Positions 832 through 16,100 of a DNA stretch of 64,000 bases are shown in pieces; position 1 is the stretch's first letter; each line of letters opens with the position of its first letter. This stretch comes from Bacteroidales bacterium (GTDB taxonomy: Bacteria; Bacteroidota; Bacteroidia; Bacteroidales; WCHB1-69): assembly GCA_017649855.1 (NCBI GenBank), contig JAGCGA010000033.1, positions 1,016 through 65,015 on the forward strand, given 5' to 3'. The position numbers were made by a program, and so were the translations under genes. The notes beneath the pieces are model-generated. The model saw nothing but the letters and a program-made list of their open reading frames with translations, had not been told where the DNA came from and made no database searches.

Positions 832-922
832 TAGAGTTGCCCATTTCTCGCATTATGGGAACTTGCCGAAATCATGGTGCGTCGTTAAACTTGGTGATAT
901 TGGTAAATGGCAAGCAGGAGGC
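830..922 (+). pseudogene. 5' remnant of a type I R-M specificity subunit (hsdS fragment)
   Basis: It translates to ...HYGNLPKSWCVVKLGDIGKWQAGG, which matches the usual HsdS N-terminus (LPxxW..xKLGDI...GG[TP]). The reading frame then runs straight into a GC-rich non-coding element at about 923. Confidence 0.35.
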
Positions 923-1145
923 AAGAAGCGTGCAGAACGGCAGCTAACGACCCACGACAACCGCCGCGGGCACGCCGGAGATGTGTATGGGTGTGGCGGG
1001 GTGGCGCGATCCCCCACCCCGGACCCCGCCAGGGGTCAAAGCTTGGTAGGACAACGGTGACACGTGCTGCCCCACCCGCGGCGCGGGGTGCATGTGCGAT
1101 GAGGGGGAAAAGGAATCGGCGCGGAAATGAGGCGCGAGGCGACGA
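923..1145. repeat. GC-rich multi-hairpin element A (REP-like)
   Basis: There is an abrupt jump to GC-rich sequence inside an AT-rich island. It contains palindromes such as ccccacccgcggcgcgggg and ggaccccgccaggggtc. Bases 1017-1051 are the reverse complement of 14602-14635, with about 29 of 35 positions matching by eye. Confidence 0.5.
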
Positions 1146-1306
1146 TCACAAATGACAGCCTAACGCCTCGCACCTGTCCTTCCGCACCACGCGGTCGCGC
1201 ATGGGGGAAGGATTTTTAACGTTGCGGGCGATGTTTTGGACAAGTTCACGGTAATTGTCGCTTCCATCATCTTTTTTGTGGTAATAAGGCTTGATAGAGT
1301 TTGTCC
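1146..1306 (-). pseudogene. 3' remnant of an abiH paralogue
   Basis: The minus-strand translation is NSIKPYYHKKDDGSDNYRELVQNIARNVKNPSPMRDRVVRKDRCEALGCHL*. It aligns residue for residue with the C-terminus of the intact gene at 2178-3431 (VSIKPYYHQMDENKDDYRKLVQNIARNFTDPRLMRDRVVRKERCEPLGAK*). No upstream coding part remains. Confidence 0.75.
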
Positions 1307-1421
1307 CCACAGCCGAAAATTACACTATAATATCTCACTGTATTTCAACATCTTATAATTCACTCATATTTACTACTGACGAAATTTATCACTTTTAGTG
1401 ATTTTCGTCAATATATTTTTG

Positions 1422-1429
1422 TATCTTTG
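1422..1429 (+). promoter_or_regulatory. Bacteroidota -7 promoter box TATCTTTG (TAnnTTTG)
   Basis: It matches the TAnnTTTG consensus exactly and lies in an AT-rich context about 114 nt upstream of the ATG at 1543. Confidence 0.45.
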
Positions 1430-1542
1430 CAAAAAATTACTTATACGGTTGTAAATAACTGAAAACTAACAACTGACAACTGATACAGGTATCTAGTTTC
1501 CATTTTTTTATACATTTGCCGCATAATTTAAAACAATCGAAA

Positions 1543-2175
1543 ATGAAGAAAACAGCAATATTTTTAGTCTTTTTTGTGCTTGTCGCACTACTCAACGCTC
1601 AGAATCCAGCCTTAAGCGTTCCTAAGTTCAAGGGTATTGAAATCACGGGGACTGTTGACCAATTTGGCAGCAAGCTTACCAACCAGGGTTTCAAATTCTT
1701 GGGGAATGAAGATTATGGCTCTGTTTACATGGGCAGTTTTGCAGGTATAAATGATTGTCTTGTAATCTTAGTCCCTGTTGTGAATTCTAAGGATATTGCC
1801 TCGGTCAACGTGATTATTGGATTGACACTTTCCGATTACGATGTTTATACTTATGAATCTTGGGACAAACTTCTCAACGACTACAACAATTTAAAAGACC
1901 TTTTGACCCAAAAATATGGAGAACCCACTGAAGATAATGCTGGTTTTGCAGAAGATGCCTCTACGGGTAATTCATTTTTAAAACTACTTTCCGTCAAGGA
2001 AGGGCAATGTGAATACTATTCCATCTGGGGTGATTCCGACGTTGACAAAATGATGGTGGAATTAGCCATCAAGGGCGGCAAAAGCATGGGCTACGAAGCG
2101 GCGGTTATCACATTACACTATTGGAATGTTGATAAAACCAGAGATTCCCAAAAAGAGATACTGGACGATTTATGA
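1543..2175 (+). CDS. secreted hypothetical protein (signal peptide, no lipobox)
   Basis: The internal Met at 1543 gives MKKTAIFLVFFVLVALLNAQ, a classic signal peptide, so the start at 1516 in the track is unlikely. I recognise no family. Confidence 0.55.
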   Translation: MKKTAIFLVFFVLVALLNAQNPALSVPKFKGIEITGTVDQFGSKLTNQGFKFLGNEDYGSVYMGSFAGINDCLVILVPVVNSKDIASVNVIIGLTLSDYDVYTYESWDKLLNDYNNLKDLLTQKYGEPTEDNAGFAEDASTGNSFLKLLSVKEGQCEYYSIWGDSDVDKMMVELAIKGGKSMGYEAAVITLHYWNVDKTRDSQKEILDDL

Positions 2176-2177
2176 TT

Positions 2178-3431
2178 TTATTTAGCGCCTAACGGTTCAC
2201 ATCTTTCTTTTCGCACCACGCGGTCGCGCATGAGACGCGGATCAGTAAAATTGCGGGCGATGTTCTGCACCAATTTGCGATAATCGTCCTTGTTTTCATC
2301 CATCTGATGATAATACGGTTTTATGGAAACACAATTCGGATGTTCAAAAAGAGTGGAAAGAAGTGTTCGGTCTGTAACACCACAAGAGTGCCCCATTATG
2401 CAAATCTGGTAAAAATCCGATTCAATGAAAGCGAGCATTCTCCGATAATTGGAAGCATCAAGATAACGAAATGATTTGATGTGACGCAAATATTCATTGT
2501 CGTTTTTCTTCATAAGCACATTGTATTCGTCATCACGCTCATCCCCATATCCGAAGATAACGCTCTTTGGATTATTAAGTGTCCCGTGAATGTGATTGGC
2601 CTCAAACTTGCCCGGGTTTTCCGATTTAGGAAGGTACATGTCTGCAGTGTTAGTGTAGTTGAAATTGAGAAGCATAATGTTGTCAGGTAGTCGGTATGCC
2701 GGACATGCACTCTCCATAACATTATCGAATATACCAGAACGAATATCTGTCGCAAATTCGTTCTTAAAGTATTTAATAGAACTTTCTGCTGTCAGTAAGG
2801 ATCCATAATCTGTATAATATCCATCAATCAGTTTTTCCCATTCAACATCATCATAATTCAACCGATCCTTCATCATCTCATCCCATTGACTTTTTGATCC
2901 TATGGCTATTTCTTCTTTAGAGATTGGTGCCAATATCTGTTTTTGGATAGTAGGATTGAAGGAATATGTTGGTAGAGAATTCAAATATTCAATGAGTTTT
3001 TCCTTGATGAATTCTAAATCGTCATTAATCTGCTTCGGATCATCACTTGATTTTAAGAAAGCGTAGTAGATGTCTTCAATACTACACCAAGGTTTATATA
3101 TTTCTTTGCAAATTTTCTCAAATAAAAGGCTTGAATTGTAATAATCACATAGATTTCTGTCTCGTTGTGCTATTTCTAATACTTCTTGTTCAGTCCAAGG
3201 TTCATTAGGTTGACTTTTGCAGTAATGATATTTCCACACATCATACCAATTGACTAAATTAATGCTGTCCGATAAAGTAAAGGAGTAAAATCTGTCTCTC
3301 AAAGTTCTCCCACATTCATACAATAGTCGCGCACCCCATTCTTTCCTATACCAATTAATGAAATCAGAATAACGCGTAGGTAGTCTATGTGCCAAATCGA
3401 AGCCGTTACCGATTAGAACCAGTCTGTTCAT
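2178..3431 (-). CDS. AbiH-family abortive-infection protein
   Basis: The N-terminus MNRLVLIGNGFDLAHRLPTRYSDFINWY is the hallmark AbiH start (IGNGFDLAHGLPT.Y.DF). At 417 aa the size is typical. Confidence 0.75.
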   Translation of the reverse strand: MNRLVLIGNGFDLAHRLPTRYSDFINWYRKEWGARLLYECGRTLRDRFYSFTLSDSINLVNWYDVWKYHYCKSQPNEPWTEQEVLEIAQRDRNLCDYYNSSLLFEKICKEIYKPWCSIEDIYYAFLKSSDDPKQINDDLEFIKEKLIEYLNSLPTYSFNPTIQKQILAPISKEEIAIGSKSQWDEMMKDRLNYDDVEWEKLIDGYYTDYGSLLTAESSIKYFKNEFATDIRSGIFDNVMESACPAYRLPDNIMLLNFNYTNTADMYLPKSENPGKFEANHIHGTLNNPKSVIFGYGDERDDEYNVLMKKNDNEYLRHIKSFRYLDASNYRRMLAFIESDFYQICIMGHSCGVTDRTLLSTLFEHPNCVSIKPYYHQMDENKDDYRKLVQNIARNFTDPRLMRDRVVRKERCEPLGAK

Positions 3432-3486
3432 ATTTTTCTTGTTATTGAAAAATCATTCAATATACACCACATTATCATCACATCCA

Positions 3487-4218
3487 CTATTTTTCTTTTG
3501 ATTTCCCTCCCGCAGCATCTTCTGAAATTGGCAACGCAATAAATTCATTCAATTCCTTTCTTCTCAATCTCCATTGAGGAAGATAGTGCGTTAGGATGGC
3601 TTCAAACATTTTATTGTGATTCTTGACCTTCAAATGGGTCAATTCATGTGCCACAACATATTCAATACAGGAACGCGGAACCCTTGCAAGTTCCAAATTG
3701 AAGAGTAAATGCCTTTTCTTGTTGATGCAACTCCCCCATTGTGAACGCATTAATTTGACCTCCCATGTGACATCGGGCTCTTCCATTTTATTGGTCCATT
3801 CAGCAACCATCTCGGACAACAATGACTTTAATTCTCTCCTTTGCCATTCTCTTAGCACCTCTGCACGATGTTCAGTTGTCGTCCCTGGCTGGACTGTCAT
3901 TATTAACCAATCACCCTGTTTGGTAATTGTATGACTACATCTCGGTTTTTCCTCAATACGAAGACGGTAGCGTTGCCCGAAATGGTAGTATGTCTCGCCA
4001 GTCTCATAATTACGTTCGGTTTGCCTTGCTTGTTCAAGAACTTCCCTTCGTTTTTCTTCTATCCATTCCCATTTTGATATAATAAACGAACGAATATCAT
4101 TATCATCAAGATATTCGGGTGAAGACACGTGAACACGAGCATCTGGAGGATAAACCGCCAAATGCAAGTTTTTTATATTCTTGCGTTCTACTGCTATCTC
4201 AATTCCGTTCAGTTCCAT
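3487..4218 (-). CDS. DUF45/YgjP-like (M48-family) zinc metallopeptidase associated with type I R-M
   Basis: It carries the WGSC motif and HELTHL (HExxH). Its ATG at 4218 overlaps the hsdR stop codon as TGATG. The track's TTG start at 4221 is an alternative. Confidence 0.8.
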   Translation of the reverse strand: MELNGIEIAVERKNIKNLHLAVYPPDARVHVSSPEYLDDNDIRSFIISKWEWIEEKRREVLEQARQTERNYETGETYYHFGQRYRLRIEEKPRCSHTITKQGDWLIMTVQPGTTTEHRAEVLREWQRRELKSLLSEMVAEWTNKMEEPDVTWEVKLMRSQWGSCINKKRHLLFNLELARVPRSCIEYVVAHELTHLKVKNHNKMFEAILTHYLPQWRLRRKELNEFIALPISEDAAGGKSKEK

Positions 4219-7200
4219 CAATCAGGAAATTCTATAGTATGAGCGATGATTATCCCTAAAATATTTTCTGCTTCGAAACCCTCACCTTTTAAAGCTTTCT
4301 CTATCTGCCTTAACAATTGCTTCTTGATTTGCTTGTTCTGCCTGAATCTGGGTTGAGCAAATTGTTTAGCTATCGCATATATTCTTAAGGTTAGTTCTAT
4401 GTTCCCGCCCAAATTATCACACAGATTTTTCTTTGCGGCAGTGTCGAGGCGAGCATCCACAACATTGCCTTGCATCAATTCCTCACCAATCTTCTTGATC
4501 TGCTTCAAAAATTCCTTATACTCTATGACACCTTGTCGCAATTCTTCCAATAAACGATTAATACGATCAGAAAAACGCCTATATTCTTCAGGGTTTTGCT
4601 CGCGTTTACGATTAACGACACGACGGACATTCGCCGTCATAGTTTCAGCTACTCCACGCTGACCTCCCAACTCTTGTTCTGCTTCTATATCTACTTCAAC
4701 ATCTCCCGTCAACTCATTTATACTGATAATATCCAAGAAAGAAAAATCATTCAATTCTGCTAATTTCTCACTTCTAGGAGCAACGATATATCGGTCAAGC
4801 AGGCTGCGCATTTGCGCATCGTACAGTTTCATATCCACATAGTCGCCACTTCGTTGCATCAAGGCGTGACGTAACTCGTCATAGTCTTTCACCTTCCGAT
4901 AAATGCTTTCTGTTTCTTCTTTTGTAAACCCAGCTTCTTCCATCTCCATTGCAATGGCTGCATAACGACGGGACAAACGGTTTACTGCATTGTAGAAATC
5001 CTCACGTTTTGTAGCATTCTTAATAACCTCTGCTGCTTGTTCGTCCACAGGCGTATCCGGCTTGAAGCAGAAATAGTCGAAGAAGTTATCCAATTTCCGA
5101 GGCAATTCTACCGGTTCACACAATCGCTCAACATTTTGCAAAGCCTTTTCCAGTTCTTCACGACCTTTCTTTAATCGAGACTTTAACAATTCTGCTATTT
5201 CATCCTTTTGGAAGCCTTCAGTAGTTTCGCCATTTGTGTAACTCTCAATGGCTCCTTCAATAAAGTTGAACAACCCCCTGTAGTCAACGATATAACCAAA
5301 CTCCTTCTCTTCGCCATTCAGTCGGTTTACTCGACAAATAGCTTGGAATAAAGTGTGGTCTATCATCTTTCGGTCAAGATAGAGATAAGTTGCAGTAGGA
5401 GCATCGAAACCCGTCAACAATTTATCTACCACAATGAGCAACTTCATCTCGGCAGGACGGTTAATGAATTGGTCTTTTGCCCATTCCTCAAATTGTTCAG
5501 GAGTACGCTTGCCCATCATCTCCTTTGACCACTTATATTTCAGTTCTTCCTCCGTTTTCTTTTCACCAGCAAAACCAGAGGCCAAATTAATATCGGGTTC
5601 ATAGCTTGAAACGACCGCACAATGATTGGTAAAACCCTCTTCCTTGAACAAAGACCAATATTTATATGCCTCATAGATACTTTCGCAAACCAGCATGGCA
5701 TTACCATAGCCACCTGTTAGAGCCGGCTTTGTTTCCATATCAAATAGGATGTCGGCTATGACTCTTCTCATAGGTTGGTCACTGCTATAGATATTCTGTA
5801 ATTGCGCCCACCTGTCTTTCAGTGCTTCTTTGGCCTTTGGCGTAAGTTGCTGGGTGTGAATTTCAAAGAGCGCATTCAGCTTATCTGGGTCTTGCAATTC
5901 CTTTTCTACATTTCTTGCTTCGTAACGCAAATCTAGGATGACACCATCTTTTACAGCTTCATCGAAACGGTAAGAATGTATATAGCGGCCAATATTATCC
6001 TGACTTGACTTGCGTTCACCTTTCTTCAACAATGGTGTACCCGTGAAACCAATCATCATGACGTTTTCGCCCATAATCATCCTCATGGCCTTGTGCAACA
6101 AACCGCCTTGTGTGCGGTGACATTCGTCAATGAAAACAAACAGATTGCCTTTTGCCTTGAAATCCACAGGCAATTTCTCTGCCACTTCCTTTAGGTATTG
6201 ATCTATTGAACGCTTTCCAGCCTTTTGATATTCCTCTAAATTTTCTTTATCCGACGATGCACCAAATTTATGAATAAGTGTGGTGATCATCCATGGGGCT
6301 GTTGCATCTAACTTTGTCAACAGATCATTGCCGCTCTTGGCATGGTAAAAATCAATGTTATGATTCTTCAAATCAAGCAAGCCTGAATTGCGCAAGCCAT
6401 TGGTAATTTGCTTGTCAAGTTCGTCACGGTCGGTAATAATAACAACTCTTGCATCCTCAATATTCTGTTTAATCCATTTTGCCAGCCACACCATCGTGAG
6501 GCTCTTGCCCGAGCCTTGTGAATGCCAGATAATACCGCTGTCCTTTTTTTCAATGCGAGGGATGGCCGCGCGAAGTGCAAAGAATTGATTGGGACGCGCC
6601 ACTTTCTTTGTGCCACCATCATAAATAATACAATACTGTATGAAATGTATCAATCGCGTAGGCTCCAACATCTGCAACACTGAACGGTCCAACTCATTCT
6701 GAACATCGGCAAATGTTGGCTTGTCAAGCTGTTCATCATCGCTTATACCTGTAGGCTCTTTCCAATGCAAATAGTATTTCTGAGGTGTACAAGTAGTTGC
6801 ATAGAACAACCCTTCACTTGGATTGCCAGCCATACAAAGTTGCGAAGTGGTAAAAAACTGCGGAATATAACCTGATTGCTGGTTACGATAGTTCTGACGG
6901 ATGCCCTCTGCTACAGGAATGCCCTGTCGTTTCAACTCCAGCACTACCATTGCAATGCCGTTGATATAAACCACAATGTCTGGGCGACGGTGTTCCGTTA
7001 CAGGCAGACCATCACACCTAACCGTTACTTCTTCGGCAATCTCAAAGATATTGTTCTTCGGATTTTTCCAGTCAACCAGATGCACGGTCAGGTCTGTTTC
7101 GTTCAAGCCTCTGTGGATACTGACGCCATAGCATAACCGTTCATAAACCTTTTCGCTGGTTTCCATCAACGTCTCGAAGTTAGAACACTGCGCTATTTCC

Positions 7201-7421
7201 TCTTTCAGTTTCCTAACAGCCGACTTCGCCTGTTCACTTGTCAATTTCTGCTCACTTTGCTTCGTCAGAAAATCCATCAAGGACTCTTCCCGCAAATTGC
7301 TGTTTTCCACCTCTTTCAGGTTGCCGATATATTGATAGCCAGGCAGCCTGTCCTTGACAAGCCTCAACACTTGCTCCTGCGTCTCACGTTCACTTTGGGT
7401 TATGTTGTCAATGAATAGCAT
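4218..7421 (-). CDS. hsdR: type I restriction endonuclease subunit R
   Basis: The protein is 1067 aa. It has an N-terminal PD-(D/E)xK-like nuclease motif (RPDIVVYINGIAMVVLELK), a Walker A motif (SQGSGKSLT), a DEAH-type box (FIDECHRTQ) and helicase motif VI (QAICRVNR). Confidence 0.9.
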   Translation of the reverse strand: MLFIDNITQSERETQEQVLRLVKDRLPGYQYIGNLKEVENSNLREESLMDFLTKQSEQKLTSEQAKSAVRKLKEEIAQCSNFETLMETSEKVYERLCYGVSIHRGLNETDLTVHLVDWKNPKNNIFEIAEEVTVRCDGLPVTEHRRPDIVVYINGIAMVVLELKRQGIPVAEGIRQNYRNQQSGYIPQFFTTSQLCMAGNPSEGLFYATTCTPQKYYLHWKEPTGISDDEQLDKPTFADVQNELDRSVLQMLEPTRLIHFIQYCIIYDGGTKKVARPNQFFALRAAIPRIEKKDSGIIWHSQGSGKSLTMVWLAKWIKQNIEDARVVIITDRDELDKQITNGLRNSGLLDLKNHNIDFYHAKSGNDLLTKLDATAPWMITTLIHKFGASSDKENLEEYQKAGKRSIDQYLKEVAEKLPVDFKAKGNLFVFIDECHRTQGGLLHKAMRMIMGENVMMIGFTGTPLLKKGERKSSQDNIGRYIHSYRFDEAVKDGVILDLRYEARNVEKELQDPDKLNALFEIHTQQLTPKAKEALKDRWAQLQNIYSSDQPMRRVIADILFDMETKPALTGGYGNAMLVCESIYEAYKYWSLFKEEGFTNHCAVVSSYEPDINLASGFAGEKKTEEELKYKWSKEMMGKRTPEQFEEWAKDQFINRPAEMKLLIVVDKLLTGFDAPTATYLYLDRKMIDHTLFQAICRVNRLNGEEKEFGYIVDYRGLFNFIEGAIESYTNGETTEGFQKDEIAELLKSRLKKGREELEKALQNVERLCEPVELPRKLDNFFDYFCFKPDTPVDEQAAEVIKNATKREDFYNAVNRLSRRYAAIAMEMEEAGFTKEETESIYRKVKDYDELRHALMQRSGDYVDMKLYDAQMRSLLDRYIVAPRSEKLAELNDFSFLDIISINELTGDVEVDIEAEQELGGQRGVAETMTANVRRVVNRKREQNPEEYRRFSDRINRLLEELRQGVIEYKEFLKQIKKIGEELMQGNVVDARLDTAAKKNLCDNLGGNIELTLRIYAIAKQFAQPRFRQNKQIKKQLLRQIEKALKGEGFEAENILGIIIAHTIEFPD

Positions 7422-7433
7422 AACAAATAGGGT

Positions 7434-9248
7434 TTAGTTGTTCTCTTGAGGCACAAAACCATTGGCGCGCATCCAGTCAAGTCCTGTTTGCCAGCGGTTA
7501 CGGCTGATGCGTTTCTTTGATTCATGCCAGTTGTTCAGGACTTCGTTCAGTATATCGTCATCCGTAAAGGGCTGATGGCTTTGCAACAAGTCACCCCATG
7601 CACTGTAAAGGGTCGCGATAATCTCGCACTGCTCCGTTGGGCTGGATTTAAAGGTGTCGATTATCTTCTCAAACATAGGCATAACATCAGCGTAGTATTT
7701 TTCGAAATACTTCTTGTGTCCGCCTCGGTTCTGCATAGGTATATACTGGTATCCTTTGTCCTCTTTCTTTGCCTCAAACCATTTTTGTTTCTTCAACTGG
7801 CTATCAATAGAGCGGAGCGCTCTGTTGTCGTATGGGCCAGCAGCATCCCTATGATAGTGGGAGTCTATGTTGATGTGGCAAAGATGCTCTGTCAGGAAAA
7901 TCAGCTTTTCCATCTTCACATGTCCGAAGGTAGGTTCCTCGCAAAGACAATCGGCTATCTCTGCCGCCAATACGCTTCTCTTGAAGTACACATTTGCCGC
8001 TTTTGCTTTCGGAAGGTCTTGTTGTTTCGTCTCTGCTTCTATCAATCTTATTTGCCCTGTCAGCAGTTTTTGCATCATCCCTTCTTTCAACCGTATATAT
8101 TTATCTCTTTCTTCTTCGAGAGATTCGATTTCGTTGTCAATCGTAGTGAGAACATTGGCAATCGCTACTTGTTCTTCGTATAAGCAAGGTAGATTAATCT
8201 TTAACGGAGCAATATCTTTGGGGTGAATATGAGGTTGAGCCCCGCCTGTTTGTAATCGAAATATATCCTTTTGCTTTAGCAGTAAAACATAGTATATAAA
8301 ATCGATGAAGTAATCATTGCCTTCCGATATTGTTGAACAGTCTGTCGCAAATATCGGTCCTTTATAGTATGAAATGTATCCCGCATTTGCACCAGAGGCA
8401 CTGATGGTAATTGTTCTACCATTACGATTAGCAACATTATGGAACCCAGCAGGTGTTATTCCTCCAGCAATTACAGGAATATTACCAAATTGATACTCTG
8501 ACGATTTCAACATACATCCACGTTGGATACTGACAATTGTTCCTAATTCACTCTCCACCCATTCCCCATCGAATCCCGGCAACCTTTTCTTTCCAGTCAG
8601 CAATTGCTGCATAGCACCTTGCTTTATCAAGCGTTTCTTCTTTATTGTCTTTGAAAGGGAAGAAATCAGCTTGTCAACACCTGATAATGCCTCCGCTATC
8701 CGGCTCTGCTCCTGCTTGTCTTTGGGATAAACGACAATAGTGGAATCAATGGCCTTCTTCGATAGAGAAAGAACTTTGATTCCTTGCATGTGTGGAAGCA
8801 ACTGATTGTGATACAATGAAGAATTAAAAAAATATCCCAAGTATTTTGGGGAAAACAAATCTTGCTTTGGTCTGTTGACAATTGTATGTAATCCTGCAAC
8901 AATATCACCATTAACATTAATCAGTTCTGTTGCCTTTCCAGCTGTTTCGTCTTCAGCAGTATCAGCAACAATTATATCTCCTGAACGAAGTAACACATTT
9001 GGATTAATCGATATTCCTGTATCATCATTGATGTATGGTAACTCATCTGTTTCAGCGTCAACAATTTCTCCAAATTTCACAAGGACATCACCATAGTGTA
9101 CATTTCGCACAATTCCACTTTCATAATTCAAGCAGTCTCTTGATAATGTATTGGAATTAACATGAAGGAAAGTTTCTCCAACCGAAGACTTTTCCCAGTC
9201 TTCAGGAATCAACCCTATCTCCGTCTGTTTGAATTTTGTTTCAATCAT
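7434..9248 (-). CDS. hsdS: type I R-M specificity subunit with an extra C-terminal domain of about 200 aa
   Basis: It has two TRD halves, each followed by the conserved helices (KRLIKQGAMQQLLTGKKRL and YIRLKEGMMQKLLTGQIRL). The canonical HsdS ends near aa 404, but the ORF continues to aa 604. Confidence 0.85.
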   Translation of the reverse strand: MIETKFKQTEIGLIPEDWEKSSVGETFLHVNSNTLSRDCLNYESGIVRNVHYGDVLVKFGEIVDAETDELPYINDDTGISINPNVLLRSGDIIVADTAEDETAGKATELINVNGDIVAGLHTIVNRPKQDLFSPKYLGYFFNSSLYHNQLLPHMQGIKVLSLSKKAIDSTIVVYPKDKQEQSRIAEALSGVDKLISSLSKTIKKKRLIKQGAMQQLLTGKKRLPGFDGEWVESELGTIVSIQRGCMLKSSEYQFGNIPVIAGGITPAGFHNVANRNGRTITISASGANAGYISYYKGPIFATDCSTISEGNDYFIDFIYYVLLLKQKDIFRLQTGGAQPHIHPKDIAPLKINLPCLYEEQVAIANVLTTIDNEIESLEEERDKYIRLKEGMMQKLLTGQIRLIEAETKQQDLPKAKAANVYFKRSVLAAEIADCLCEEPTFGHVKMEKLIFLTEHLCHINIDSHYHRDAAGPYDNRALRSIDSQLKKQKWFEAKKEDKGYQYIPMQNRGGHKKYFEKYYADVMPMFEKIIDTFKSSPTEQCEIIATLYSAWGDLLQSHQPFTDDDILNEVLNNWHESKKRISRNRWQTGLDWMRANGFVPQENN

Positions 9249-9259
9249 TGCAATTTACT

Positions 9260-11713
9260 TTAAAATTCAACACCCATTTCTTGAAGATAACCCTTCACAA
9301 TATCGCGATAGCGGTTTACGTCGGCTTCCATCTCTGGTAGCGTCACCTTATACCGTTCGTTCAATGCCGTGATAGAAGTAATGATGTTTTGATGCTCAGC
9401 GGTCATCAAGGCTTGCAAACGGCTCTGCATGTCGGGCATCCACTTGTCATCAAACACCATCGTGCGTATTTCTTCTTCCCTCAAAGCCTTGTACTTCTTC
9501 AAGACATTCGCTGTGAGTCGGGCAACTTTGTCTTTCAAGTTCTTCTTTAGTTGCTCTTGCTCCTTGAAATGCTTCAAGAAGTCCTCCCACACAGGTATAG
9601 TGTCAGCATTTTCCTTGGGATTATTCTTACCATCCTTCCACAAAAAGCCAACGGCTTTGCAAAACTTTGCATTCACCTTGTCGCTCTCAATATCCTCAAA
9701 AGCATCAGCATATTCCTCCATAATGGTTCCCATTGCCACCTGTTCTGCGTCTATCAACTGCCGAGTATTGGTCACATCGGCTTGTTCCTTGGCAAAATAA
9801 CGATTGACAAGGATTGAGGAAGGCACGAGGTCGCAGGTCAAGTCCTCATAGCTGTAGGTTTTCTTTACTTCACCCTTTTTGTTGGTGGGCAGTTCCACGG
9901 TCACCTTCCAACCATCGCGACTAATCAGATAAAGGTCATCCTGCATTGTCACATCATTCCAGTAGGTCATCAGTTCATCATAGACAGCGTATGCATCGAC
10001 CAACGAACGACTGGACTTGAAAATGCGTAATATCTCGTCGCTCCAACGAATAATAGCCTTGCGGGGTACACTGCCAACACCCAGCGTTTGCAATTCCTCG
10101 TGCATAAACTGATGCCATGTTTCAAAAGCTTTGCCGTAATTGTCAGCCTGTAGCAGATAACTCTCATCTTGTTCTATAAGCTGGGCTAAATGGCTGCCGG
10201 CTTCTTTAGTCAGTTGCAAATAGCCGTCGTTCTCGTAGGGCTCAAATATCTTGTCGCGAAGCGACGGGCACACATTCCATAGTGTTTCCAAGGAATCAAT
10301 ATCAGCCAAAGGCAAGCCTCCATGAATATGGGCATGGAGATTTTGCTCAACTTCAGTAGAGCGTGGCGTAATGTAGCGGGGAATGTTCAGATTGTATTCG
10401 TTGCGTTCTATTTCTTCCCATTCCACCAAGCGGCAAAAGTGGTCTATCTGCTTTCCGGCCTCCCACGCATCACTGATACGGCGGATGTCCTGCTCACGAA
10501 GTCTGTTCTTTGCACCGTCCTTCTTGAATCCCTCTTTTGCATCCATCATAAAAATACCTTTTGAGGTTGCAGCGTTTTTCTTGTCAATAATGATGATGCA
10601 GGCCGGAATACCAGTGCCATAAAACAGGTTTGAGGGAAGTCCAATGATGCCACGTATCACCTTTTTGTCAATCAGATGTTTCCTGATTTTGGCTTCGGCC
10701 TCGCCTTTTTCTACCGAGCCACGGAACAACACGCCATGAGGTAGGATACAGGCACCCATGCCATCTGGTTTTATCGACTCGATGATGTGCAATAGAAACG
10801 CATAGTCTCCCTTGGATGTTGGCGGCACACCAATGTCCTTTTTCCATCGGCTATAAACATCATCTTCTTTGGCCGACTTCATCCACTTCTTCAGGGAAAA
10901 CGGAGGATTGGCAACCACATAGTCAAACTGGTCAAGCTTGACACCATGAGTATGCAAAGGCGTGTTCAATGTATCACCTTGTTGCAGGTCTGCCGTCATC
11001 ATGCCATGCAGAATCATATTCATCTTGGCCATGCTTATGGTAGAAAGATCTTTCTCCTGACCATAGATGCCAACGTTTACACCCTCTTTGGGAGCCTCGT
11101 CTCTGGCGCGAAGCAACAACGAACCCGAGCCGCAGGCAGGGTCGTAGATGTTTATTTGCGGACGATGGTCTTTGCTGATGCCAATAATGCGAGCCATCAA
11201 ACGGCTTACCTCGGCAGGAGTATAGAACTGTCCTTTAGACTTTCCCGACTGTGAGGCAAAATTGCGCATCAGATATTCGTATGCATCACCTATCAAATCG
11301 TCGTCACCAGCTCGGTTGGTACCGAAGTCGAGGTTCTTGTTTTCAAAAACTTCAACGAGACCCGTGATGGTATCAACCTTGTCCTTCCCCTTGCCCAACT
11401 TGTCTTCATTGTCGAAGTCGGCATTGACGAACACATTGTCAAGTCCAAAAGCGTTAGCTATTTTCGCCAACTTCACATTGATTTGCTCACCAATATCATT
11501 CTTGTGCTTCAGTTTGCGAATCTCATCGAAAGTGCAATCATCAGGCAGATCCTCCATCATGTCCTCATCTCCAGCCTTCTTCTTATCGCTGATATATTTC
11601 AAGAACAGCATGACCAGCACATAGTCCTTGTATAGACTTGCATCCATACCACCACGGAGTGCATCACAGCCCTCCCACAGCATACTATATAATTGTGATT
11701 TCTTGATTGCCAT
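9260..11713 (-). CDS. hsdM: type I R-M N6-adenine DNA methyltransferase subunit M (long form, 817 aa)
   Basis: It has the HsdM N-terminal domain (KSQLYSMLWEGCDALRG), SAM motif I (DPACGSGSLL) and catalytic motif IV (NPPF in VVANPPFSLKKW). A helical tail of about 330 aa follows. Confidence 0.9.
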   Translation of the reverse strand: MAIKKSQLYSMLWEGCDALRGGMDASLYKDYVLVMLFLKYISDKKKAGDEDMMEDLPDDCTFDEIRKLKHKNDIGEQINVKLAKIANAFGLDNVFVNADFDNEDKLGKGKDKVDTITGLVEVFENKNLDFGTNRAGDDDLIGDAYEYLMRNFASQSGKSKGQFYTPAEVSRLMARIIGISKDHRPQINIYDPACGSGSLLLRARDEAPKEGVNVGIYGQEKDLSTISMAKMNMILHGMMTADLQQGDTLNTPLHTHGVKLDQFDYVVANPPFSLKKWMKSAKEDDVYSRWKKDIGVPPTSKGDYAFLLHIIESIKPDGMGACILPHGVLFRGSVEKGEAEAKIRKHLIDKKVIRGIIGLPSNLFYGTGIPACIIIIDKKNAATSKGIFMMDAKEGFKKDGAKNRLREQDIRRISDAWEAGKQIDHFCRLVEWEEIERNEYNLNIPRYITPRSTEVEQNLHAHIHGGLPLADIDSLETLWNVCPSLRDKIFEPYENDGYLQLTKEAGSHLAQLIEQDESYLLQADNYGKAFETWHQFMHEELQTLGVGSVPRKAIIRWSDEILRIFKSSRSLVDAYAVYDELMTYWNDVTMQDDLYLISRDGWKVTVELPTNKKGEVKKTYSYEDLTCDLVPSSILVNRYFAKEQADVTNTRQLIDAEQVAMGTIMEEYADAFEDIESDKVNAKFCKAVGFLWKDGKNNPKENADTIPVWEDFLKHFKEQEQLKKNLKDKVARLTANVLKKYKALREEEIRTMVFDDKWMPDMQSRLQALMTAEHQNIITSITALNERYKVTLPEMEADVNRYRDIVKGYLQEMGVEF

Positions 11714-11715
11714 TG

Positions 11716-13665
11716 TTAATTGTCTTTTGTGTTATGACTTTCGTCAAATTCTTTTTCCAGTCGTTCCCGTAATCCTTTACGACAAAAATAATCTTTAAAC
11801 TTTGTCTTCCTTAAGAGCAATGTTCCAAATGTTGTTGCTACTGCAGCACCAATTGCAATAATAATAGACCAAATTGTTGGAAGAGCGGCCTTATAAAATT
11901 CGTTTACGCACCACAAAGCACAGATTGCAAGAATAAGTATAACATTTATCCATGTATCTTTGGCCAATTTACTCATTTTTGAATTAACGAACTCATCTTT
12001 ATCTTTTAGGTATTTGTCTTTTTCTAATAATTTGAGGCGCTCGTTCAAACCTTGTATTTGCAAATCTTTTTCTTCTATCTTCTTATTTAGTCCCTCTATT
12101 TCTGTCTCTGCATCATGTTTCTGTTTTAGTTTGAGGTTTTCTTCTTCACTAGTATATTCTTTCAACTTCTTAGCGAACTGTTCAACTGTCACATTGTCTG
12201 CAAGTAATGATTCGTCAACCTCTTTTTGTGTCAAATGACCTTCTGCCATTCGAATGCATAAATTAAAACTATCTTTTTCGGTAATACTTCCTATTGACAA
12301 AGCATCATCAGCTCGTTTCTTTATTATTTTCAAAGTCTCTCTTGTTGGCATCTTTGACCTTCTATATTTTGTCACATAAGAAGCCAAACCTCCCTTGGTA
12401 ATATCACTGATTGAGATGTTTTGTCCCTGAGCCGGATTTGACAACCATAATAAAACCAATAATTCATTAGCACTTATCAAATACCTATCATGTATCTTCC
12501 TTCCATAACTATAATCATAAGGTGAATATGAATTATGTAGGAACCAGCACTTGGCGTCAACAAATTCTTTTATATTTTGCCCTCTTTTCTTTTCAACATA
12601 ATATTTTGCCACCACATCATTAAGTGCACTTTCTTTGTTGTTTTGTCTGCTTTGGATCAGGTCTTTATATTCTCTTGATTTACTTGCTTTTTCAACAATT
12701 TCCCTGATCTGAGCTTCCTTTATGATAGTAATACCTTTATCATAAATTGTCTTAAAGACATTATCCTTTATCCTTTCAAGAGTGGTTTTGTCTATATTTC
12801 TTCGAATACAAGCGCTAAACACATCTGCGCATTTCACAGACCCTATATAGTCTTTGTTAGCAAAATCATTGATGCGGTTGCTAAGCAATATTTGAATTTG
12901 TTCAAAAGTACTATAAAGCATAGAAAATCGATAACCTAATTGACGACACAAATCGAATACTTGATTACAAGTATGGAAAGCATCTTCCGTATTAAGGTCG
13001 ATCAAACTAATAAAGAAGTTGGTATCTAATAATAATTCAGCATCCGTAACTTTTGTGGTGATATTTTGCTTCAAATAAGACTCAATAATACTACCTAAAT
13101 AGATCTTACCCATCAATTCAAATATAGAGGAGTTGTCAAGCCGTTCAGAAACATATTTTGGCACAAAATAATCTAAATCCAGTAAGTCCGAACGTTTGTC
13201 GGAGAACAACTCCATATTTTGGGCAAGAATAAATTTCTTTAGATCCTCAAAATCAAATTGATAACCATTTTCTTGGCAATAGGTACAATAATCATCTTTT
13301 AAAAGATTAATATTCTGTCCTTCCTGCTCGAACAATTCGTCAATATCATTAAACACATAACTTTTAATAATGAAAGAACCATCATTAAATAGTTCGAATA
13401 TGTTTTTATCATTTATTTGATATTCAATATTCTCTAATATCTTGCCAAGTATCGGCAGAGGAATGGAAATTTCAAATACAGCAAATATTTTGTCAGAGAT
13501 TTCTGTTAGTGAACGTCCCTTAAAATCTATAAGTCCGTGTTCTTTAGCATATTCTGATAAAGCTTTCTTCACCAGAGGAATATATAATTCTGATATAGCA
13601 GCCTTAGAAGAAGATGTTTCTTTCAAGTATCCAAGTAGCGAATATGTTGCTAACAATTTATCCAT
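11716..13665 (-). CDS. uncharacterised 649-aa protein with an N-terminal domain, a PIN-like DTN motif, a coiled coil and two C-terminal TM helices
   Basis: LLLDTNFFISLIDL at aa 211-224 is a typical PIN strand-1 motif. A heptad-rich segment spans aa 505-560 (EENLKLKQKHDAETEIEGLNKKIEEKDLQIQGLNERLKLLEKDK). Two hydrophobic stretches follow (WINVILILAICALWCV and LPTIWSIIIAIGAAVATTFGTLLL). Its stop codon lies 2 nt before the hsdM ATG. Confidence 0.6.
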   Translation of the reverse strand: MDKLLATYSLLGYLKETSSSKAAISELYIPLVKKALSEYAKEHGLIDFKGRSLTEISDKIFAVFEISIPLPILGKILENIEYQINDKNIFELFNDGSFIIKSYVFNDIDELFEQEGQNINLLKDDYCTYCQENGYQFDFEDLKKFILAQNMELFSDKRSDLLDLDYFVPKYVSERLDNSSIFELMGKIYLGSIIESYLKQNITTKVTDAELLLDTNFFISLIDLNTEDAFHTCNQVFDLCRQLGYRFSMLYSTFEQIQILLSNRINDFANKDYIGSVKCADVFSACIRRNIDKTTLERIKDNVFKTIYDKGITIIKEAQIREIVEKASKSREYKDLIQSRQNNKESALNDVVAKYYVEKKRGQNIKEFVDAKCWFLHNSYSPYDYSYGRKIHDRYLISANELLVLLWLSNPAQGQNISISDITKGGLASYVTKYRRSKMPTRETLKIIKKRADDALSIGSITEKDSFNLCIRMAEGHLTQKEVDESLLADNVTVEQFAKKLKEYTSEEENLKLKQKHDAETEIEGLNKKIEEKDLQIQGLNERLKLLEKDKYLKDKDEFVNSKMSKLAKDTWINVILILAICALWCVNEFYKAALPTIWSIIIAIGAAVATTFGTLLLRKTKFKDYFCRKGLRERLEKEFDESHNTKDN

Positions 13666-13692
13666 AATTATACAGTAGTAATCGCAATCAAA

Positions 13693-14358
13693 TTATTTCT
13701 CCCTCTCCAATCTAATCTCCCACAAGGTTTTCCCATTATGGCTAAAATACTTTGGTCCCTGGTAGGATTCGCTCTTGTTGTGCATTCCTTCGGGCAGGTA
13801 GGTGCCGCAAAAGGCAGAAAGGCTCCAGAGGCGGCCTTCATACTCCACCTTGTTTTTGCCTGCTACTTTTACAGGAAGGTTCAAAGCATCGAATATGATA
13901 GTGTCACCCACATTCAGGCCGATCATACTGAAATCAAAAGGTTTGCGTTGCTCTTTCTTCTCTTCCTTCTCTTTGATTTTCTGACCTTCCACAATTGGAT
14001 AAATCTGATAAGGCTTATCCGAATCATATCGCATAATGACGGCGTCCTCAATCGCACAGGCTATATCCATAAAAATGTCCAGTGCCACTTGTGGGTCAAC
14101 ATTGAAAAACTCCCTGTTTTGGCGTATGCGCAAATCAGTAAGACGATCTATCGTCTTATGCACTAACTTCTCCACCTCACCATATTTGACGGTTTTCATC
14201 GTGGCATAAATGTCGAATGGAAGTGGCACGGCTGTGTTATCCAATTCTTTTGAACGGACATCCACCGGGCGTGAACTCTTGCCTATTTTCACCCAATCCT
14301 CCTTAAAACTGGGATTCGTCAGAATGTAAACGTATCCTTCTTGCGGCTCTTTGGTCAT
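13693..14358 (-). CDS. T5orf172 / GIY-YIG-superfamily domain protein with an unassigned C-terminal domain
   Basis: The N-terminus GYVYILTNPSFKEDWVKIGKSSRPVDVRSKELDNTAVPLPF...EVEKLVHKTI...REFFNV fits the T5orf172 pattern. It is the first gene of the array. Confidence 0.7.
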   Translation of the reverse strand: MTKEPQEGYVYILTNPSFKEDWVKIGKSSRPVDVRSKELDNTAVPLPFDIYATMKTVKYGEVEKLVHKTIDRLTDLRIRQNREFFNVDPQVALDIFMDIACAIEDAVIMRYDSDKPYQIYPIVEGQKIKEKEEKKEQRKPFDFSMIGLNVGDTIIFDALNLPVKVAGKNKVEYEGRLWSLSAFCGTYLPEGMHNKSESYQGPKYFSHNGKTLWEIRLEREK

Positions 14359-14386
14359 ACAAAATGTTTTTCTACAATTACAGCCG

Positions 14387-14394
14387 CAAAAATA
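14387..14394 (-). promoter_or_regulatory. -7 promoter box TATTTTTG for the defence array
   Basis: The minus strand reads TATTTTTG, about 29 nt upstream of the ATG at 14358. It is the only clear TAnnTTTG box I see upstream of the co-directional array. Confidence 0.45.
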
Positions 14395-14399
14395 ACAAA

Positions 14400-14745
14400 T
14401 AATTGCAAAAAATCCGCATTTTCACACACCGGATTTCTTCGCCCTGCCCTCCCCTCCCGCGGCGCCTCTCGCCGTCATCAGGGCACGCGCGGGGCGCACC
14501 GCGGGCGTGGCCGGAACGCCATCCATCACACCCGTTCCGTAATCCACGACTACAGATATGGAACCCCTACGGGGTTGTCATATGGAGGCGGGGCCATGCA
14601 TTCCTACCGGACGTTGACCCCTGCGGGGTCTGGGGAATGACATCAAGGTATCTTGATGCATTCTATTACTACCCCGGCCTGCGGCCACCCCTTCTACCAT
14701 AGAAGGGGAATTTAGGGACACCGCATTCCATTGAACGTAAACCTG
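14400..14745. repeat. GC-rich multi-hairpin element B (REP-like)
   Basis: It is a chain of short hairpins: aatccg..cggatt, aacccctacggggtt, gacccctgcggggtc, catcaaggtatcttgatg and ccccttctaccatagaagggg. It shares the tcctacc..ttgacccctgcggggtc.gggg block with element A, in inverted orientation. Confidence 0.5.
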
Positions 14746-14771
14746 TTAAGTAATTGGAAAATAGTATTACG

Positions 14772-15947
14772 CTATGGCAGTTTGGACAATTCCCGATACA
14801 AAGCCAACCCTTTCGCCGTCAACAAGTATTTTTGGCGGGGATGTCGGGGAGATTGGGGGTACAACATGCGGACATAACCATCCGAAATGGCAGGGTTAAG
14901 ATGGTATTCCAAGAAATTGGGTCGATGTTTCAATCCTAACACACTCATAAGTTGAGATATAGAAAACTCATCACGTCCGATTATCCTTATCAGTTCAATA
15001 ATAAAAGGATTGTCTGTATGGAACAAATCCCGTACTTGTTCGGGTACTTGTTCGGGTACTTGTTCGGGTATTTGTCCTGTACTTGCAGGGGCCGCCAGAT
15101 TGGGCTGCAGGCTCCACTCCTTTGCGGGGTGGATATGCAGATATCGGTTTCTCAAATCCCATTGCTCTCCCAACAACATATTGCGGAAGAATCGCTCCAA
15201 ATAAACGGGAGAGTAGTCAATGCCTTTCACTGCACTCTTGTAGTTGGCGCGCACCAGCGCATTGCGAAAATACCAGGAATGATCGGCAAACATGTTGTTG
15301 TCTACCTTGAAACCGATGTGCCGAAGATAAAGAATGGTAAAGACCGCCGTGGTGCGGGTGTTGCCCTCACCAAATGGATGAATCTGCCATAATCCTGAAA
15401 CAAAGCGGGTGAGATGCGTTATGAATTCGTCAGACGAAACCCCTTGATAACTGTACTGACGTTCCTGTTCTATATCGTACTCCACGGCCCTTTGAAGGTC
15501 TTCCCAGTTGAGATAATTCACAGATTCGTATTCCAACACCCACTCCTTCTTGGAAATATCATAGTCGCGAACCTTACCGGCGTGTTTGAATACGCCTTCG
15601 AAAATCCTCCGATGCAAAGCGACAAATCCTTTGGAGCTAAAGTCAAAAGACTCAGAGGAGAGTATCTTGGTGATGTTGGCCGAAACTTTATCTGCCTCTT
15701 GCTTTTCGTCGTCATCGGGTTCACGCTTTGTCTTAGACAGATAATATGTTTTTATCAAATCACGCACCTCATCAATGTTGATTTCACCCTCAATGTGCTT
15801 GCGGGCAGTTTCTTTCAGATAGTCCGAAGTCGTAAGCCCGTCCACAGCCTGCAGTCCAATAGCAGTCTGCCAAATGGAGGCCTTTTCCTTTTTGCCTGGT
15901 TCCACCTGTCGGATGTATTCGTCAAAATCTGGGTATTGAGAGTTCAT
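14772..15947 (-). CDS. Fic/DOC family protein (AMPylase-type) with a C-terminal winged-helix-like domain
   Basis: It carries the Fic motif HPFGEGNTRTTAVF (HxFx[DE]GNxRxxR). The ATG at 15947 (MNSQYPDF) is more likely than the TTG at 15956 used in the track. Confidence 0.85.
   Translation of the reverse strand: MNSQYPDFDEYIRQVEPGKKEKASIWQTAIGLQAVDGLTTSDYLKETARKHIEGEINIDEVRDLIKTYYLSKTKREPDDDEKQEADKVSANITKILSSESFDFSSKGFVALHRRIFEGVFKHAGKVRDYDISKKEWVLEYESVNYLNWEDLQRAVEYDIEQERQYSYQGVSSDEFITHLTRFVSGLWQIHPFGEGNTRTTAVFTILYLRHIGFKVDNNMFADHSWYFRNALVRANYKSAVKGIDYSPVYLERFFRNMLLGEQWDLRNRYLHIHPAKEWSLQPNLAAPASTGQIPEQVPEQVPEQVRDLFHTDNPFIIELIRIIGRDEFSISQLMSVLGLKHRPNFLEYHLNPAISDGYVRMLYPQSPRHPRQKYLLTAKGLALYRELSKLP
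15032..15079. repeat. 12-bp tandem repeat (3 perfect copies and 1 degenerate copy) inside the Fic gene
   Basis: gtacttgttcgg occurs three times, followed by gtatttgtcctg. It encodes PEQVPEQVPEQV in the linker before the C-terminal domain. Confidence 0.9.
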
Positions 15948-15980
15948 ATTATCCAATTCATCAGTTTGATATTACATCTG

Positions 15981-15988
15981 CAAAGATA
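15981..15988 (-). promoter_or_regulatory. -7 promoter box TATCTTTG for the Fic gene
   Basis: The minus strand reads TATCTTTG, about 33 nt upstream of the ATG at 15947. Confidence 0.45.
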
Positions 15989-16100
15989 ACATTTTTTTCG
16001 GGAAAACAAGCATCCTAAACACCCTATTTTAACATACGCCTCCCAACTATATACTCATGCGCCGAGTGGCGGACATGATGCTTATCATGAAAAATTTCAT

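Follow-up and report, generated by a model that had tools for sequence, protein, structure and literature searches.

The window, a stretch of 64,000 nucleotides from a Bacteroidales bacterium (contig JAGCGA010000033.1), carries a real, conserved and unnamed gene of 649 codons that heads a type I restriction-modification (R-M) operon and whose product is predicted from structural modelling to be a membrane-anchored protein with a winged helix and a PIN-like, nuclease-type domain. This gene, hereafter the target gene, belongs to a family of AT-rich, cassette-like genes located in defence islands, mostly of Bacteroidota, and, as a rule, members of its own clade are inserted directly before the gene for an N6-adenine methyltransferase, either in type I R-M systems or in one other. 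Our preferred explanation, to which we give about an even chance of being right, is that the target protein acts autonomously as an accessory effector of phage defence, in the manner of abortive infection, is directed at the membrane and is co-expressed with R-M as a second layer.

The original prediction, made from the letters of the window, described an open reading frame (ORF) of 649 residues, an aspartate-containing motif encoded at nt 13035-12994 and a TAA stop codon 2 nt from the ATG of hsdM, and all of these were found where it had placed them (coordinates of all features are collected in Table 1). A homologue search retrieved 378 homologues, among them a protein 100% identical to the target (P0001, 'hypothetical protein, MAG Bacteroidales bacterium'), and another search delimited about 356 clusters at 50% identity. 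Most homologues are 640-740 residues long, and the family is mostly distributed among Bacteroidota, including those of gut and rumen. The target protein had no meaningful match in Pfam, NCBIfam, PHROGs, PADLOC or PDB sequences; a Pfam match to 6PGD was sub-threshold only and matches to PDB sequences reflected coiled-coil noise, so both were set aside. None of the 5027 defence models of PADLOC-DB 2.0 matched the target at E <= 0.01, and a comparison of 65 family members with the same database returned only four weak LeoBC matches and two singletons. The base composition of the family genes is distinctive: they are 27-36% G+C in all 17 loci examined, where neighbouring genes are 31-55%, and they are far more AT-rich than their neighbours in all but one (besides the window, the observation covers L001, L004, L010, L012, L014, L016, L017, L019, L020, L023, L034, L035, L041, L047, L050, L053 and L059). 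This difference from the neighbours suggests a cassette-like mobility.

To describe the architecture of the protein, an AlphaFold (AF2) model computed from an alignment of 110 sequences was used (predicted local distance difference test, pLDDT, 88.4; predicted template modelling score, pTM, 0.76). An earlier AF2 model, based on a shallow alignment of 31 sequences, had a pLDDT of 65 and left residues 363-438 unmodelled; it was discarded, and the deeper alignment mended the defect. The model predicts, from the N-terminus, a winged helix, a helical linker, a PIN-like alpha/beta core, a helical domain, a long helix entering a first transmembrane helix (TM1), a short loop, a second transmembrane helix (TM2) and a basic helix. 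The winged-helix-like unit is composed of a helix (24-42), a strand (47-50), two helices (53-64 and 70-84) and two strands (90-92 and 98-101), and Foldseek matched the N-terminus to the Cdt1 C-terminal domain, the winged helix of ORC, PadR, MarR and the I73R protein of African swine fever virus. Conserved positions of this domain in the family alignment are T7-Y8-S-L-L, P30, G50, P69 (100%), D95 and F98. The original prediction had described about 200 residues of helical region at the N-terminus; helices are indeed present, but the region is not purely helical and its winged-helix-like unit had been missed. A helical domain was placed by the model at residues 399-486, after the fifth core strand.

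Towards the C-terminus, residues 494-590 are modelled as one unbroken helix that holds both the heptads and TM1. The heptads of a coiled coil predicted earlier at residues 505-560 are real, but they are significant only over a narrower segment, at about residues 517-548 (score of 0.825 compared to 0.476 +/- 0.106 in shuffled sequences, 2 of 500 shuffles reaching 0.825). Profile searches with the long charged helix gave weak matches to the geminin and PKG coiled coils. The two hydrophobic helices foreseen at residues 571-618 coincide with Kyte-Doolittle segments 572-590 and 597-618 (19-residue window), and hydropathy does not reach 1.6 anywhere in residues 1-555. N588, E589 and an L-P-T motif in the region of the loop between them are conserved within the clade of the target. 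Lysine and arginine residues number 4 and 10 in the flanks of the transmembrane segments and 1 in the six-residue loop, which indicates a topology with both termini inside the cell; the nucleic-acid-binding half of the protein would then face the cytoplasm.

The PIN-like assignment of the core was supported by several lines of evidence. The core strands of the model (210-213, 246-250, 313-315, 373-377 and 396-398) are each flanked by helices, as in the three-layer alpha/beta/alpha fold of the PIN superfamily (Pfam clan CL0280) with its parallel sheet of about five strands, and helical inserts follow strand 2 (a long one, helices 251-309) and strand 3 (helices 317-360). In line with the PIN-type nuclease of the original prediction, PIN proteins were the top Foldseek matches of the AlphaFold model in both PDB and BFVD. 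The best PDB matches were 2fe1 (PAE0151, prob 0.96) and 1w8i (AF1683, prob 0.99), with TM-target values of 0.47-0.51, followed by HARP RNase P, VapC 7vwo and Exo1; the top BFVD match was a phage protein labelled 'PIN like domain' (E 9e-3, prob 1.00, 231 columns). Among relatives, PIN_3, PIN and PIN_12 were the leading globular Pfam families to recur, with 12, 8 and 4 matches in 65 members and 13, 3 and 2 matches in 35 independent genome-derived members (best PIN_12 match 1.3e-5, best PIN_3 match 5e-4). These matches are sub-threshold, those inspected scoring 14-16 bits for cut-offs of 27-32 (one PIN_12 match reached 15.7 bits for a cut-off of 32), and the target protein itself did not match any PIN-clan Pfam family even at E <= 10; its assignment rests on fold and family transitivity, with no significant sequence match. 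Given the Foldseek results in the two databases, the recurrent weak PIN matches of relatives and inserts resembling those of DUF4935, we accept a predicted PIN-like fold for residues 204-445. Two other leads were rejected: a match of the PIN-region profile to cyanovirin-N among PDB sequences (E 6e-4), in which an all-beta lectin was aligned onto a helical stretch and which was taken as chance, and a DUF433 neighbour in locus L061, from which a genuine PIN alignment might have been obtained but whose ORF is no real protein.

The motif LLLDTNFFISLIDL (residues 211-224, LLLDTNFF motif) brings the conserved aspartate D214 to the end of strand 1. D214 is retained in 110 of 110 diverse family members and T215 in 106 of them, in line with PIN proteins, whose strand-1 Asp usually has Thr or Ser after it; in the same set, D350 and R361 are invariant and T253 is nearly so. 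Position 228 is acidic in 88% of the family (D228 in the target), and the family alignment contains no conserved acid following strand 3.

Comparison of the membrane tails revealed that the family combines a constant head (winged helix, PIN-like core and helical domain) with at least three classes of tail: an MCU type, an 'HSNINAF' type and the type of the window protein (W-C-V-N-E-F-Y ... L-P-T). The Pfam family MCU (PF04678), that of the mitochondrial calcium uniporter, was matched by 17 of 65 diverse members, and five of the eight MCU-type members checked (P0181, P0176, P0171, P0177 and P0238) pass its gathering score, with up to 68 bits for a cut-off of 30.8 and coverage of positions 26-177 of 177. 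Their turn between TM1 and TM2 reads W-(D/N)-x-(M/L)-E-P, as in GWNIMEPVVYF (P0176), GWDIMEP (P0203), DWNKIEPVTYF and GWDIMEPW, which corresponds to the 'DIME' filter, and P0176 matched the MCU structure 6dnf (E 5e-5). A hidden Markov model (HMM) of the MCU-type tails found about 33 tails among 157 scored. Judged from their sequences, about 30% of family representatives carry a bona fide MCU pore domain at the tail position. The window tail is clearly homologous in profile comparison to the HSNINAF type (hhalign score of 126.7 compared to 28.7 for the reversed control), and the HSNINAF type appears weakly related to the MCU type (57.8 compared to 35.1). The window tail further has the element order of MCU (coiled coil, TM1, short loop, TM2, helix) and, according to the AF2 model and the distribution of charges, its termini on the same side of the membrane.

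The genomic neighbourhood of the family was analyzed at 40 species-representative genome loci, almost all from Bacteroidota, and in 12 metagenome look-ups. Eight distinct metagenome contexts of proteins at least 66% identical to the target were compared together with the window. The next gene encodes an N6-adenine methyltransferase in eight of these nine contexts (seven of the eight metagenome contexts and the window), the two genes overlapping by 4 nt at one extreme and being 7 nt apart at the other. The partner may be an HsdM of 817-847 residues, an HsdM-S fusion of 1146 residues or a HSDR_N_2/N6_Mtase/Eco57I protein of 933 residues near Dnd-like genes. The exception is L004 (L004-L006, 71% identical to the target), where the neighbours are HNH_4, a methyltransferase/HIT gene and AbiH and where R-M genes are missing. 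The placement directly before a methylase, which the original prediction had singled out, is therefore a recurrent property, the tight junction being kept even though the methyltransferases share no more than 21-48% identity in 9 of 10 pairs. As the target proteins are 62-76% identical in this comparison, it is the target that is conserved, and its partner can be exchanged.

In the genome loci, type I R-M or N6_Mtase genes were present within three genes of the target homologue in 15 of 40 cases. All eight loci of the clade defined by at least 50% identity were in type I R-M or N6_Mtase loci, at positions that vary: the gene may precede hsdM or hsdR, follow hsdS or hsdR, or lie between hsdM and hsdR. 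Other loci adjoin integrases, AAA_21/RloB, TIR/SEFIR, DUF433, DUF234 ATPases or helix-turn-helix (HTH) genes, or stand alone. The four MCU-type contexts analyzed had as neighbours ThiF and a conjugative-type topoisomerase (of the integrative and conjugative element type), DUF433 or SEFIR/TIR genes, and none of the four was in an R-M locus (MCU-type contexts include L056, L059, L060 and L062; the MCU-type locus in L053 spans 7992-10055). The upstream partner varies as well. A gene for an XRE-type HTH protein of 60-72 residues (HTH_3) lies about 10-50 nt upstream in five of nine contexts of the clade, the window and the nearest relatives have a T5orf172 gene, and elsewhere the position is occupied by DUF5131 or an unknown protein of 212 residues; in the window, no small ORF is present between the T5orf172 gene and the target. 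Combined, these results agree with a single-gene module that is autonomous and moves horizontally, and which in one clade has been set in front of N6-methyltransferase operons on repeated occasions.

According to the explanation that we prefer, the target would be a multidomain protein anchored in the inner membrane, probably oligomeric, with a PIN-like core of the DUF4935/PIN_12 type. Its cytoplasmic winged helix/PIN module would recognise infection-associated nucleic acid, the putative trigger, and might cleave it through an RNase activity. From there the signal would be relayed by the unbroken coiled-coil/TM1 helix to the membrane module of two helices, and this module would open or perturb the membrane. 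The continuity of this helix, together with the channel domains found in relatives, favours a membrane output over a passive anchor. The context in the window is that of defence, with T5orf172/PDC-S57, HsdM/S/R, YgjP and AbiH on the same minus-strand gene string in a low-GC island.

Several observations weigh against this explanation. The location in a defence island is circumstantial, and no match was found between the target and any validated defence protein. The E-values of the PDB Foldseek matches are weak (0.28-0.32), and the PIN-region profile did not retrieve any PIN protein from PDB sequences. The first strand had been called textbook PIN. D214 is indeed invariant, but the term goes too far, since the target fails to match PIN families at the sequence level and departs from them at position 256, where the canonical Glu after strand 2 is expected. 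This column is E in 92 of 110 members (84%) and Q across the whole clade of the target, which has E255 beside Q256 where close relatives read N255-Q256. With Gln at the site of the canonical Glu throughout the clade, it is uncertain whether the target acts as a nuclease. Concerning the tail, the target did not match Pfam MCU, whole-protein Foldseek did not retrieve an MCU structure, and the turn L-W-C-V-N-E-F-Y-K-A-A-L-P-T (W585, E589) has no D or P in the register of the MCU filter. Direct alignment of the window tail with MCU-type tails gave an hhalign score of 42.0 compared to 35.7 for the reversed control, and hmmsearch with the MCU-type tail HMM gave -2.2 bits; on these two results, an MCU homology of the window tail indicated by hhalign (prob 88-94%) was dropped. 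The window tail is not detectably MCU and shares only element order and topology with it, so channel activity of the target is proposed by analogy only.

A broader proposal starts from the chain of tail similarities, from the window type to HSNINAF (126.7) and from HSNINAF to the MCU type (57.8 for a control of 35). The winged helix/PIN head might gate a two-helix channel through the coiled coil in a class of single-protein immune effectors not recognised before, the MCU tail being ancestral, the window tail degenerate and the window gene an R-M-coupled branch; the uniporter pore would then have close bacterial anti-phage relatives, as do gasdermins, TIR, cGAS/STING and CorA-type effectors. 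We regard this proposal as tentative and on balance doubtful.

The first reading of the window had suggested a latent RNase or membrane effector under the control of the R-M complex. Such a PrrC-like guard would be held off by contact with HsdM/HsdS/HsdR and freed when a phage anti-restriction protein disables R-M, and PrrC/EcoprrI provides a precedent for a guard-type accessory nuclease in type I R-M. The junction of the target gene, tight and possibly translationally coupled, before methyltransferases of at least three divergent lineages speaks for this model, and so does the fact that the clade's eight genome loci are all found within type I R-M loci, positions varying; the coupling of PIN genes to type I R-M has already been noted in the literature (PMC5499597). 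We nevertheless judge it unlikely. L004-L006 are devoid of an R-M neighbour despite their close relationship to the target, most of the distant members and the four MCU-type contexts examined are R-M-free, and the partner methyltransferases are too divergent for one conserved interface while the target itself has changed much less. The target also has no similarity to PrrC or RloC. Control of the target by R-M is not required. A selfish function was considered in parallel: a PIN/transmembrane toxin with a small XRE-HTH repressor or antitoxin might act as an addiction module that steadies the island or the R-M operon. PIN proteins are classic toxins of toxin-antitoxin systems (PMC5499597), the small HTH_3 gene precedes the target homologue in about half of the clade contexts, and the AT-richness of the family suggests a mobile cassette. 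However, this HTH gene is absent from the window and the closest relatives, where the T5orf172 gene takes its place, and DUF5131 or the 212-residue protein is upstream in other loci; a protein of 649 residues with three extra domains is unlike type II toxins, and tblastn found no homologue on 72,556 plasmids or in 50,697 phage records. An addiction role for the target therefore seems improbable to us.

Two further alternatives would dispense with a membrane output or with defence altogether. If the PIN domain were a soluble nuclease and the sole effector, the transmembrane hairpin would only tether it to the membrane, for example where phage DNA enters or near membrane-bound ribosomes, and no pore would be formed. 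The invariant D214, D350 and R361 and the near-invariant T215 do suggest that an active or binding site has been conserved, and the family varies most in its transmembrane tails, with their three or more classes. We consider this quite unlikely, since the second catalytic acid is lost in the clade, the full MCU pore domain of about a third of the family has kept its selectivity-filter motif and is no simple anchor, and the coiled coil runs straight into TM1, as in MCU. A housekeeping role is to our mind very unlikely. The protein would serve, for instance, as a cation channel whose nucleic-acid-binding head has a regulatory role, or would control the expression of R-M, and would be found in variable regions by chance; the homology of the MCU-type relatives to a physiological Ca2+ channel and the possible use of the winged helix as a transcription factor agree with this, but the patchy distribution, the AT-rich and foreign-looking genes, the defence or mobile neighbours, the lack of a fixed chromosomal position and the presence in R-M operons of differing architecture do not.

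The target is one of seven successive minus-strand cistrons that extend from the T5orf172 gene through the AbiH gene (Table 1). A scan did not detect an intrinsic terminator between the cistrons of the operon; sigma-70 promoter-like sites numbered 46 for 35 expected, and the sigma-70/terminator scan is uninformative for a Bacteroidales operon. The G+C content is 34-47% across window positions 1-16000, an island within a backbone of 52-59%, and no flanking tRNA was found within 22 kb of it. Among the genes of the island, the target has the highest A+T content (32.4% G+C, compared to 44.4% and 46.3% in the abutting genes and 54% in the backbone). This sharp, cassette-like break in composition occurs at the target despite spacers of just 27 nt and 2 nt.

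Table 1. Coordinates of the target gene, its predicted domains and selected codons, and the neighbouring genes of the window.
Feature	Position (nt)	Strand	Basis
Target ORF, ATG to TAA, 649 residues	13665..11716 (TAA 11718-11716)	minus	ORF call and translation
Residues 1-105, winged-helix-like N-terminal domain (helix-helix-strand-helix-helix-strand-strand)	13351..13665	minus	AF2, Foldseek
Residues 106-203, helical linker (helices 109-199) ending in conserved YLGS(I/L)I, G191 invariant	13057..13350	minus	AF2, alignment
Residues 204-445, PIN-like alpha/beta core	12331..13056	minus	AF2, Foldseek, Pfam in relatives
D214 codon, invariant Asp closing strand 1 (LLLDTN)	13024..13026	minus	alignment
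Q256 codon, site of the canonical PIN Glu after strand 2	12898..12900	minus	alignment
D350 codon, second invariant Asp (ALND/ALHD, helix before strand 4)	12616..12618	minus	alignment
Residues 446-493, small helical domain, conserved D465 and R472-M-x-E-G	12187..12330	minus	AF2, alignment
Residues 494-571, long charged helix with heptads, continuous with TM1	11953..12186	minus	AF2, heptad test
Residues 572-590, TM1 (WINVILILAICALWCVNEF)	11896..11952	minus	Kyte-Doolittle peak 1.94, AF2
Residues 591-596, short predicted periplasmic loop YKAALP	11878..11895	minus	AF2, hydropathy
Residues 597-620, TM2 (hydrophobic segment 597-618)	11806..11877	minus	Kyte-Doolittle peak 2.10, AF2
Residues 621-649, basic C-terminal helices (KDYFCRKGLRERLEKEFD), predicted cytoplasmic; helix 629-648	11719..11805	minus	AF2; conserved in clade
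Junction target/hsdM: TAA, CA (2-nt spacer), ATG of hsdM	11711..11718	minus	sequence
Fic/DOC protein with Fic-like C-terminal domain, upstream of the operon	14772..15956	minus	profile matches
T5orf172 / PADLOC candidate PDC-S57, 221 residues, first cistron, 27 nt upstream of the target	13693..14358	minus	profile matches
hsdM, 817 residues, cistron directly after the target	9260..11713	minus	profile matches
hsdS, 604 residues	7434..9248	minus	profile matches
hsdR, 1067 residues	4218..7421	minus	profile matches
YgjP-like metallopeptidase	3487..4221	minus	profile matches
AbiH, 417 residues	2178..3431	minus	profile matches

Other genes of the operon and of related loci show features of their own. 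The T5orf172/MUG113 (GIY-YIG-like) protein encoded upstream of the target fits the PADLOC candidate single-gene system PDC-S57 (E 9e-64), and the same family is found between hsdR and hsdM in L034 and L036. HsdM has HsdM_N and N6_Mtase domains (E 4e-104 in Pfam) and matches over its full length the PADLOC MTase_I model PDLC03027; its N6_Mtase domain stops at about residue 453 and is followed by a C-terminal extension of about 360 residues with no Pfam match. HsdS is unusually long, and its residues 377-601 match positions 479-700 of the PADLOC type I methyltransferase model PDLC03039 (E 1e-53); this resemblance to the C-terminal part of the model indicates that HsdS has an extra domain, one which in other cases is fused to HsdM. 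The YgjP-like metallopeptidase gene overlaps the stop codon of hsdR by 4 nt. Between the T5orf172 and Fic genes, a segment of 413 nt (14359-14771) has a G+C content of 53%, unlike either flank, and contains no plausible ORF on the strand of the operon; it could contain the operon promoter or an island boundary. In L014 (8964-15956; also in L015), the target homologue precedes the gene of the 933-residue methyltransferase, after which come genes for a Methylase_S-like protein, a 59-residue Sp-DndD fragment, an SMC/AAA_23 ATPase and a DndE/TrwB-like protein, an arrangement that looks like a composite R-M/Dnd-like system. In L012, which carries a target homologue of 66% identity, an AAA_14/DUF4143 ATPase gene (12785-14137) lies between hsdS and hsdR and is another nested accessory gene.

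The architecture had been put forward as one not described before. This holds for the databases, since PADLOC, Pfam and NCBIfam gave no match, but the coupling of PIN-like genes to type I R-M had been mentioned in a general way (PMC5499597). Searches of full-text literature and PADLOC 2.0 yielded no description of the family, of its arrangement of winged helix, PIN, coiled coil and two transmembrane helices or of PIN-MCU fusions. Likewise, no paper in the searchable full-text literature links a calcium uniporter to phage defence, and bacterial MCU proteins appear there only through inclusion in phylogenies. If the family is one of defence effectors, it would represent a new and widespread module among the accessory genes nested in type I R-M operons and a tractable case of layered immunity, in which restriction is backed by a membrane-directed abortive response. 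Accessory genes of the sort that the window gene would exemplify, as an R-M-nested effector, are already known, and the family-level link to MCU is the more novel lead. The MCU-type finding may matter more: a full pore domain joined to a winged helix-PIN head in variable, defence-like neighbourhoods raises the question of the role of bacterial MCU homologues and of the use of a uniporter pore in prokaryotic conflict systems. Should the PIN domain be inactive and the tail a plain anchor, the gene would be one more uncharacterised passenger of a defence island.

Of the known systems, DUF4935 / PIN_12 (PF16289; Matelska et al. 2017, PMC5499597) is similar to the predicted core of the target. In DUF4935, strand 2 of the PIN core is followed by a long helical insert and strand 3 by two helices, and the proteins, of about 350 residues, are mono-cistronic (PMC5499597). 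The alpha/beta core of the target shows hhhhDTN at its first strand and has helices at both of these places, those after strand 2 forming a long insert; 1w8i is a structural neighbour common to both, and many family members have weak Pfam matches. In contrast, the target is about twice the size, is part of an operon and is extended by a winged helix at the N-terminus and by a coiled coil and two transmembrane helices at the C-terminus. It differs from the PIN clan at large in that no family member was shown to reach a gathering score and in the Gln that replaces the canonical Glu in its clade. PIN-like genes that are transcriptionally coupled to type I R-M subunits, the antitoxin being sometimes missing, have been reported (Matelska et al. 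2017, PMC5499597), and a PIN-like gene in one operon with hsdM, hsdS and hsdR is also what the window presents. Those PIN proteins are small toxins of toxin-antitoxin type whose arrangements are not conserved between related species (PMC5499597), whereas the target is a large membrane protein that holds the same position before methyltransferases of divergent lineages. Unlike in VapBC-like type II toxin-antitoxin systems, the gene upstream of the target is the 221-residue T5orf172 gene and no small antitoxin ORF is present.

PrrC, which combines an ABC-ATPase with a HEPN-like nuclease, and RloC are anticodon nucleases embedded in type I R-M loci. They share with the target an accessory nuclease-type gene in a type I R-M operon and the logic of a second line of defence; they differ in that there is no relationship in sequence or fold, that the target has transmembrane helices and that homologues of the target exist where R-M is missing. 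The likeness to MCU (PF04678; 6dnf, 6xqn, 6dt0) lies in distant members, which have the full MCU domain (coiled coil 1, TM1, filter, TM2, coiled coil 2) at the tail position; the tail of the target reads W585-C-V-N-E589-F, with no D or P in register, and the N-terminal domain of eukaryotic MCU is not known to be related to the winged helix-PIN head. Finally, membrane effectors of defence derived from ion channels are represented by CorA in type III CRISPR, Cam1, Csx28 and RexB. These have no homology to the target, in which no domain sensing a signalling nucleotide was detected, but the concept is the same as that proposed here: a cytoplasmic sensor is linked to a module that perturbs the membrane and so brings about abortive infection.

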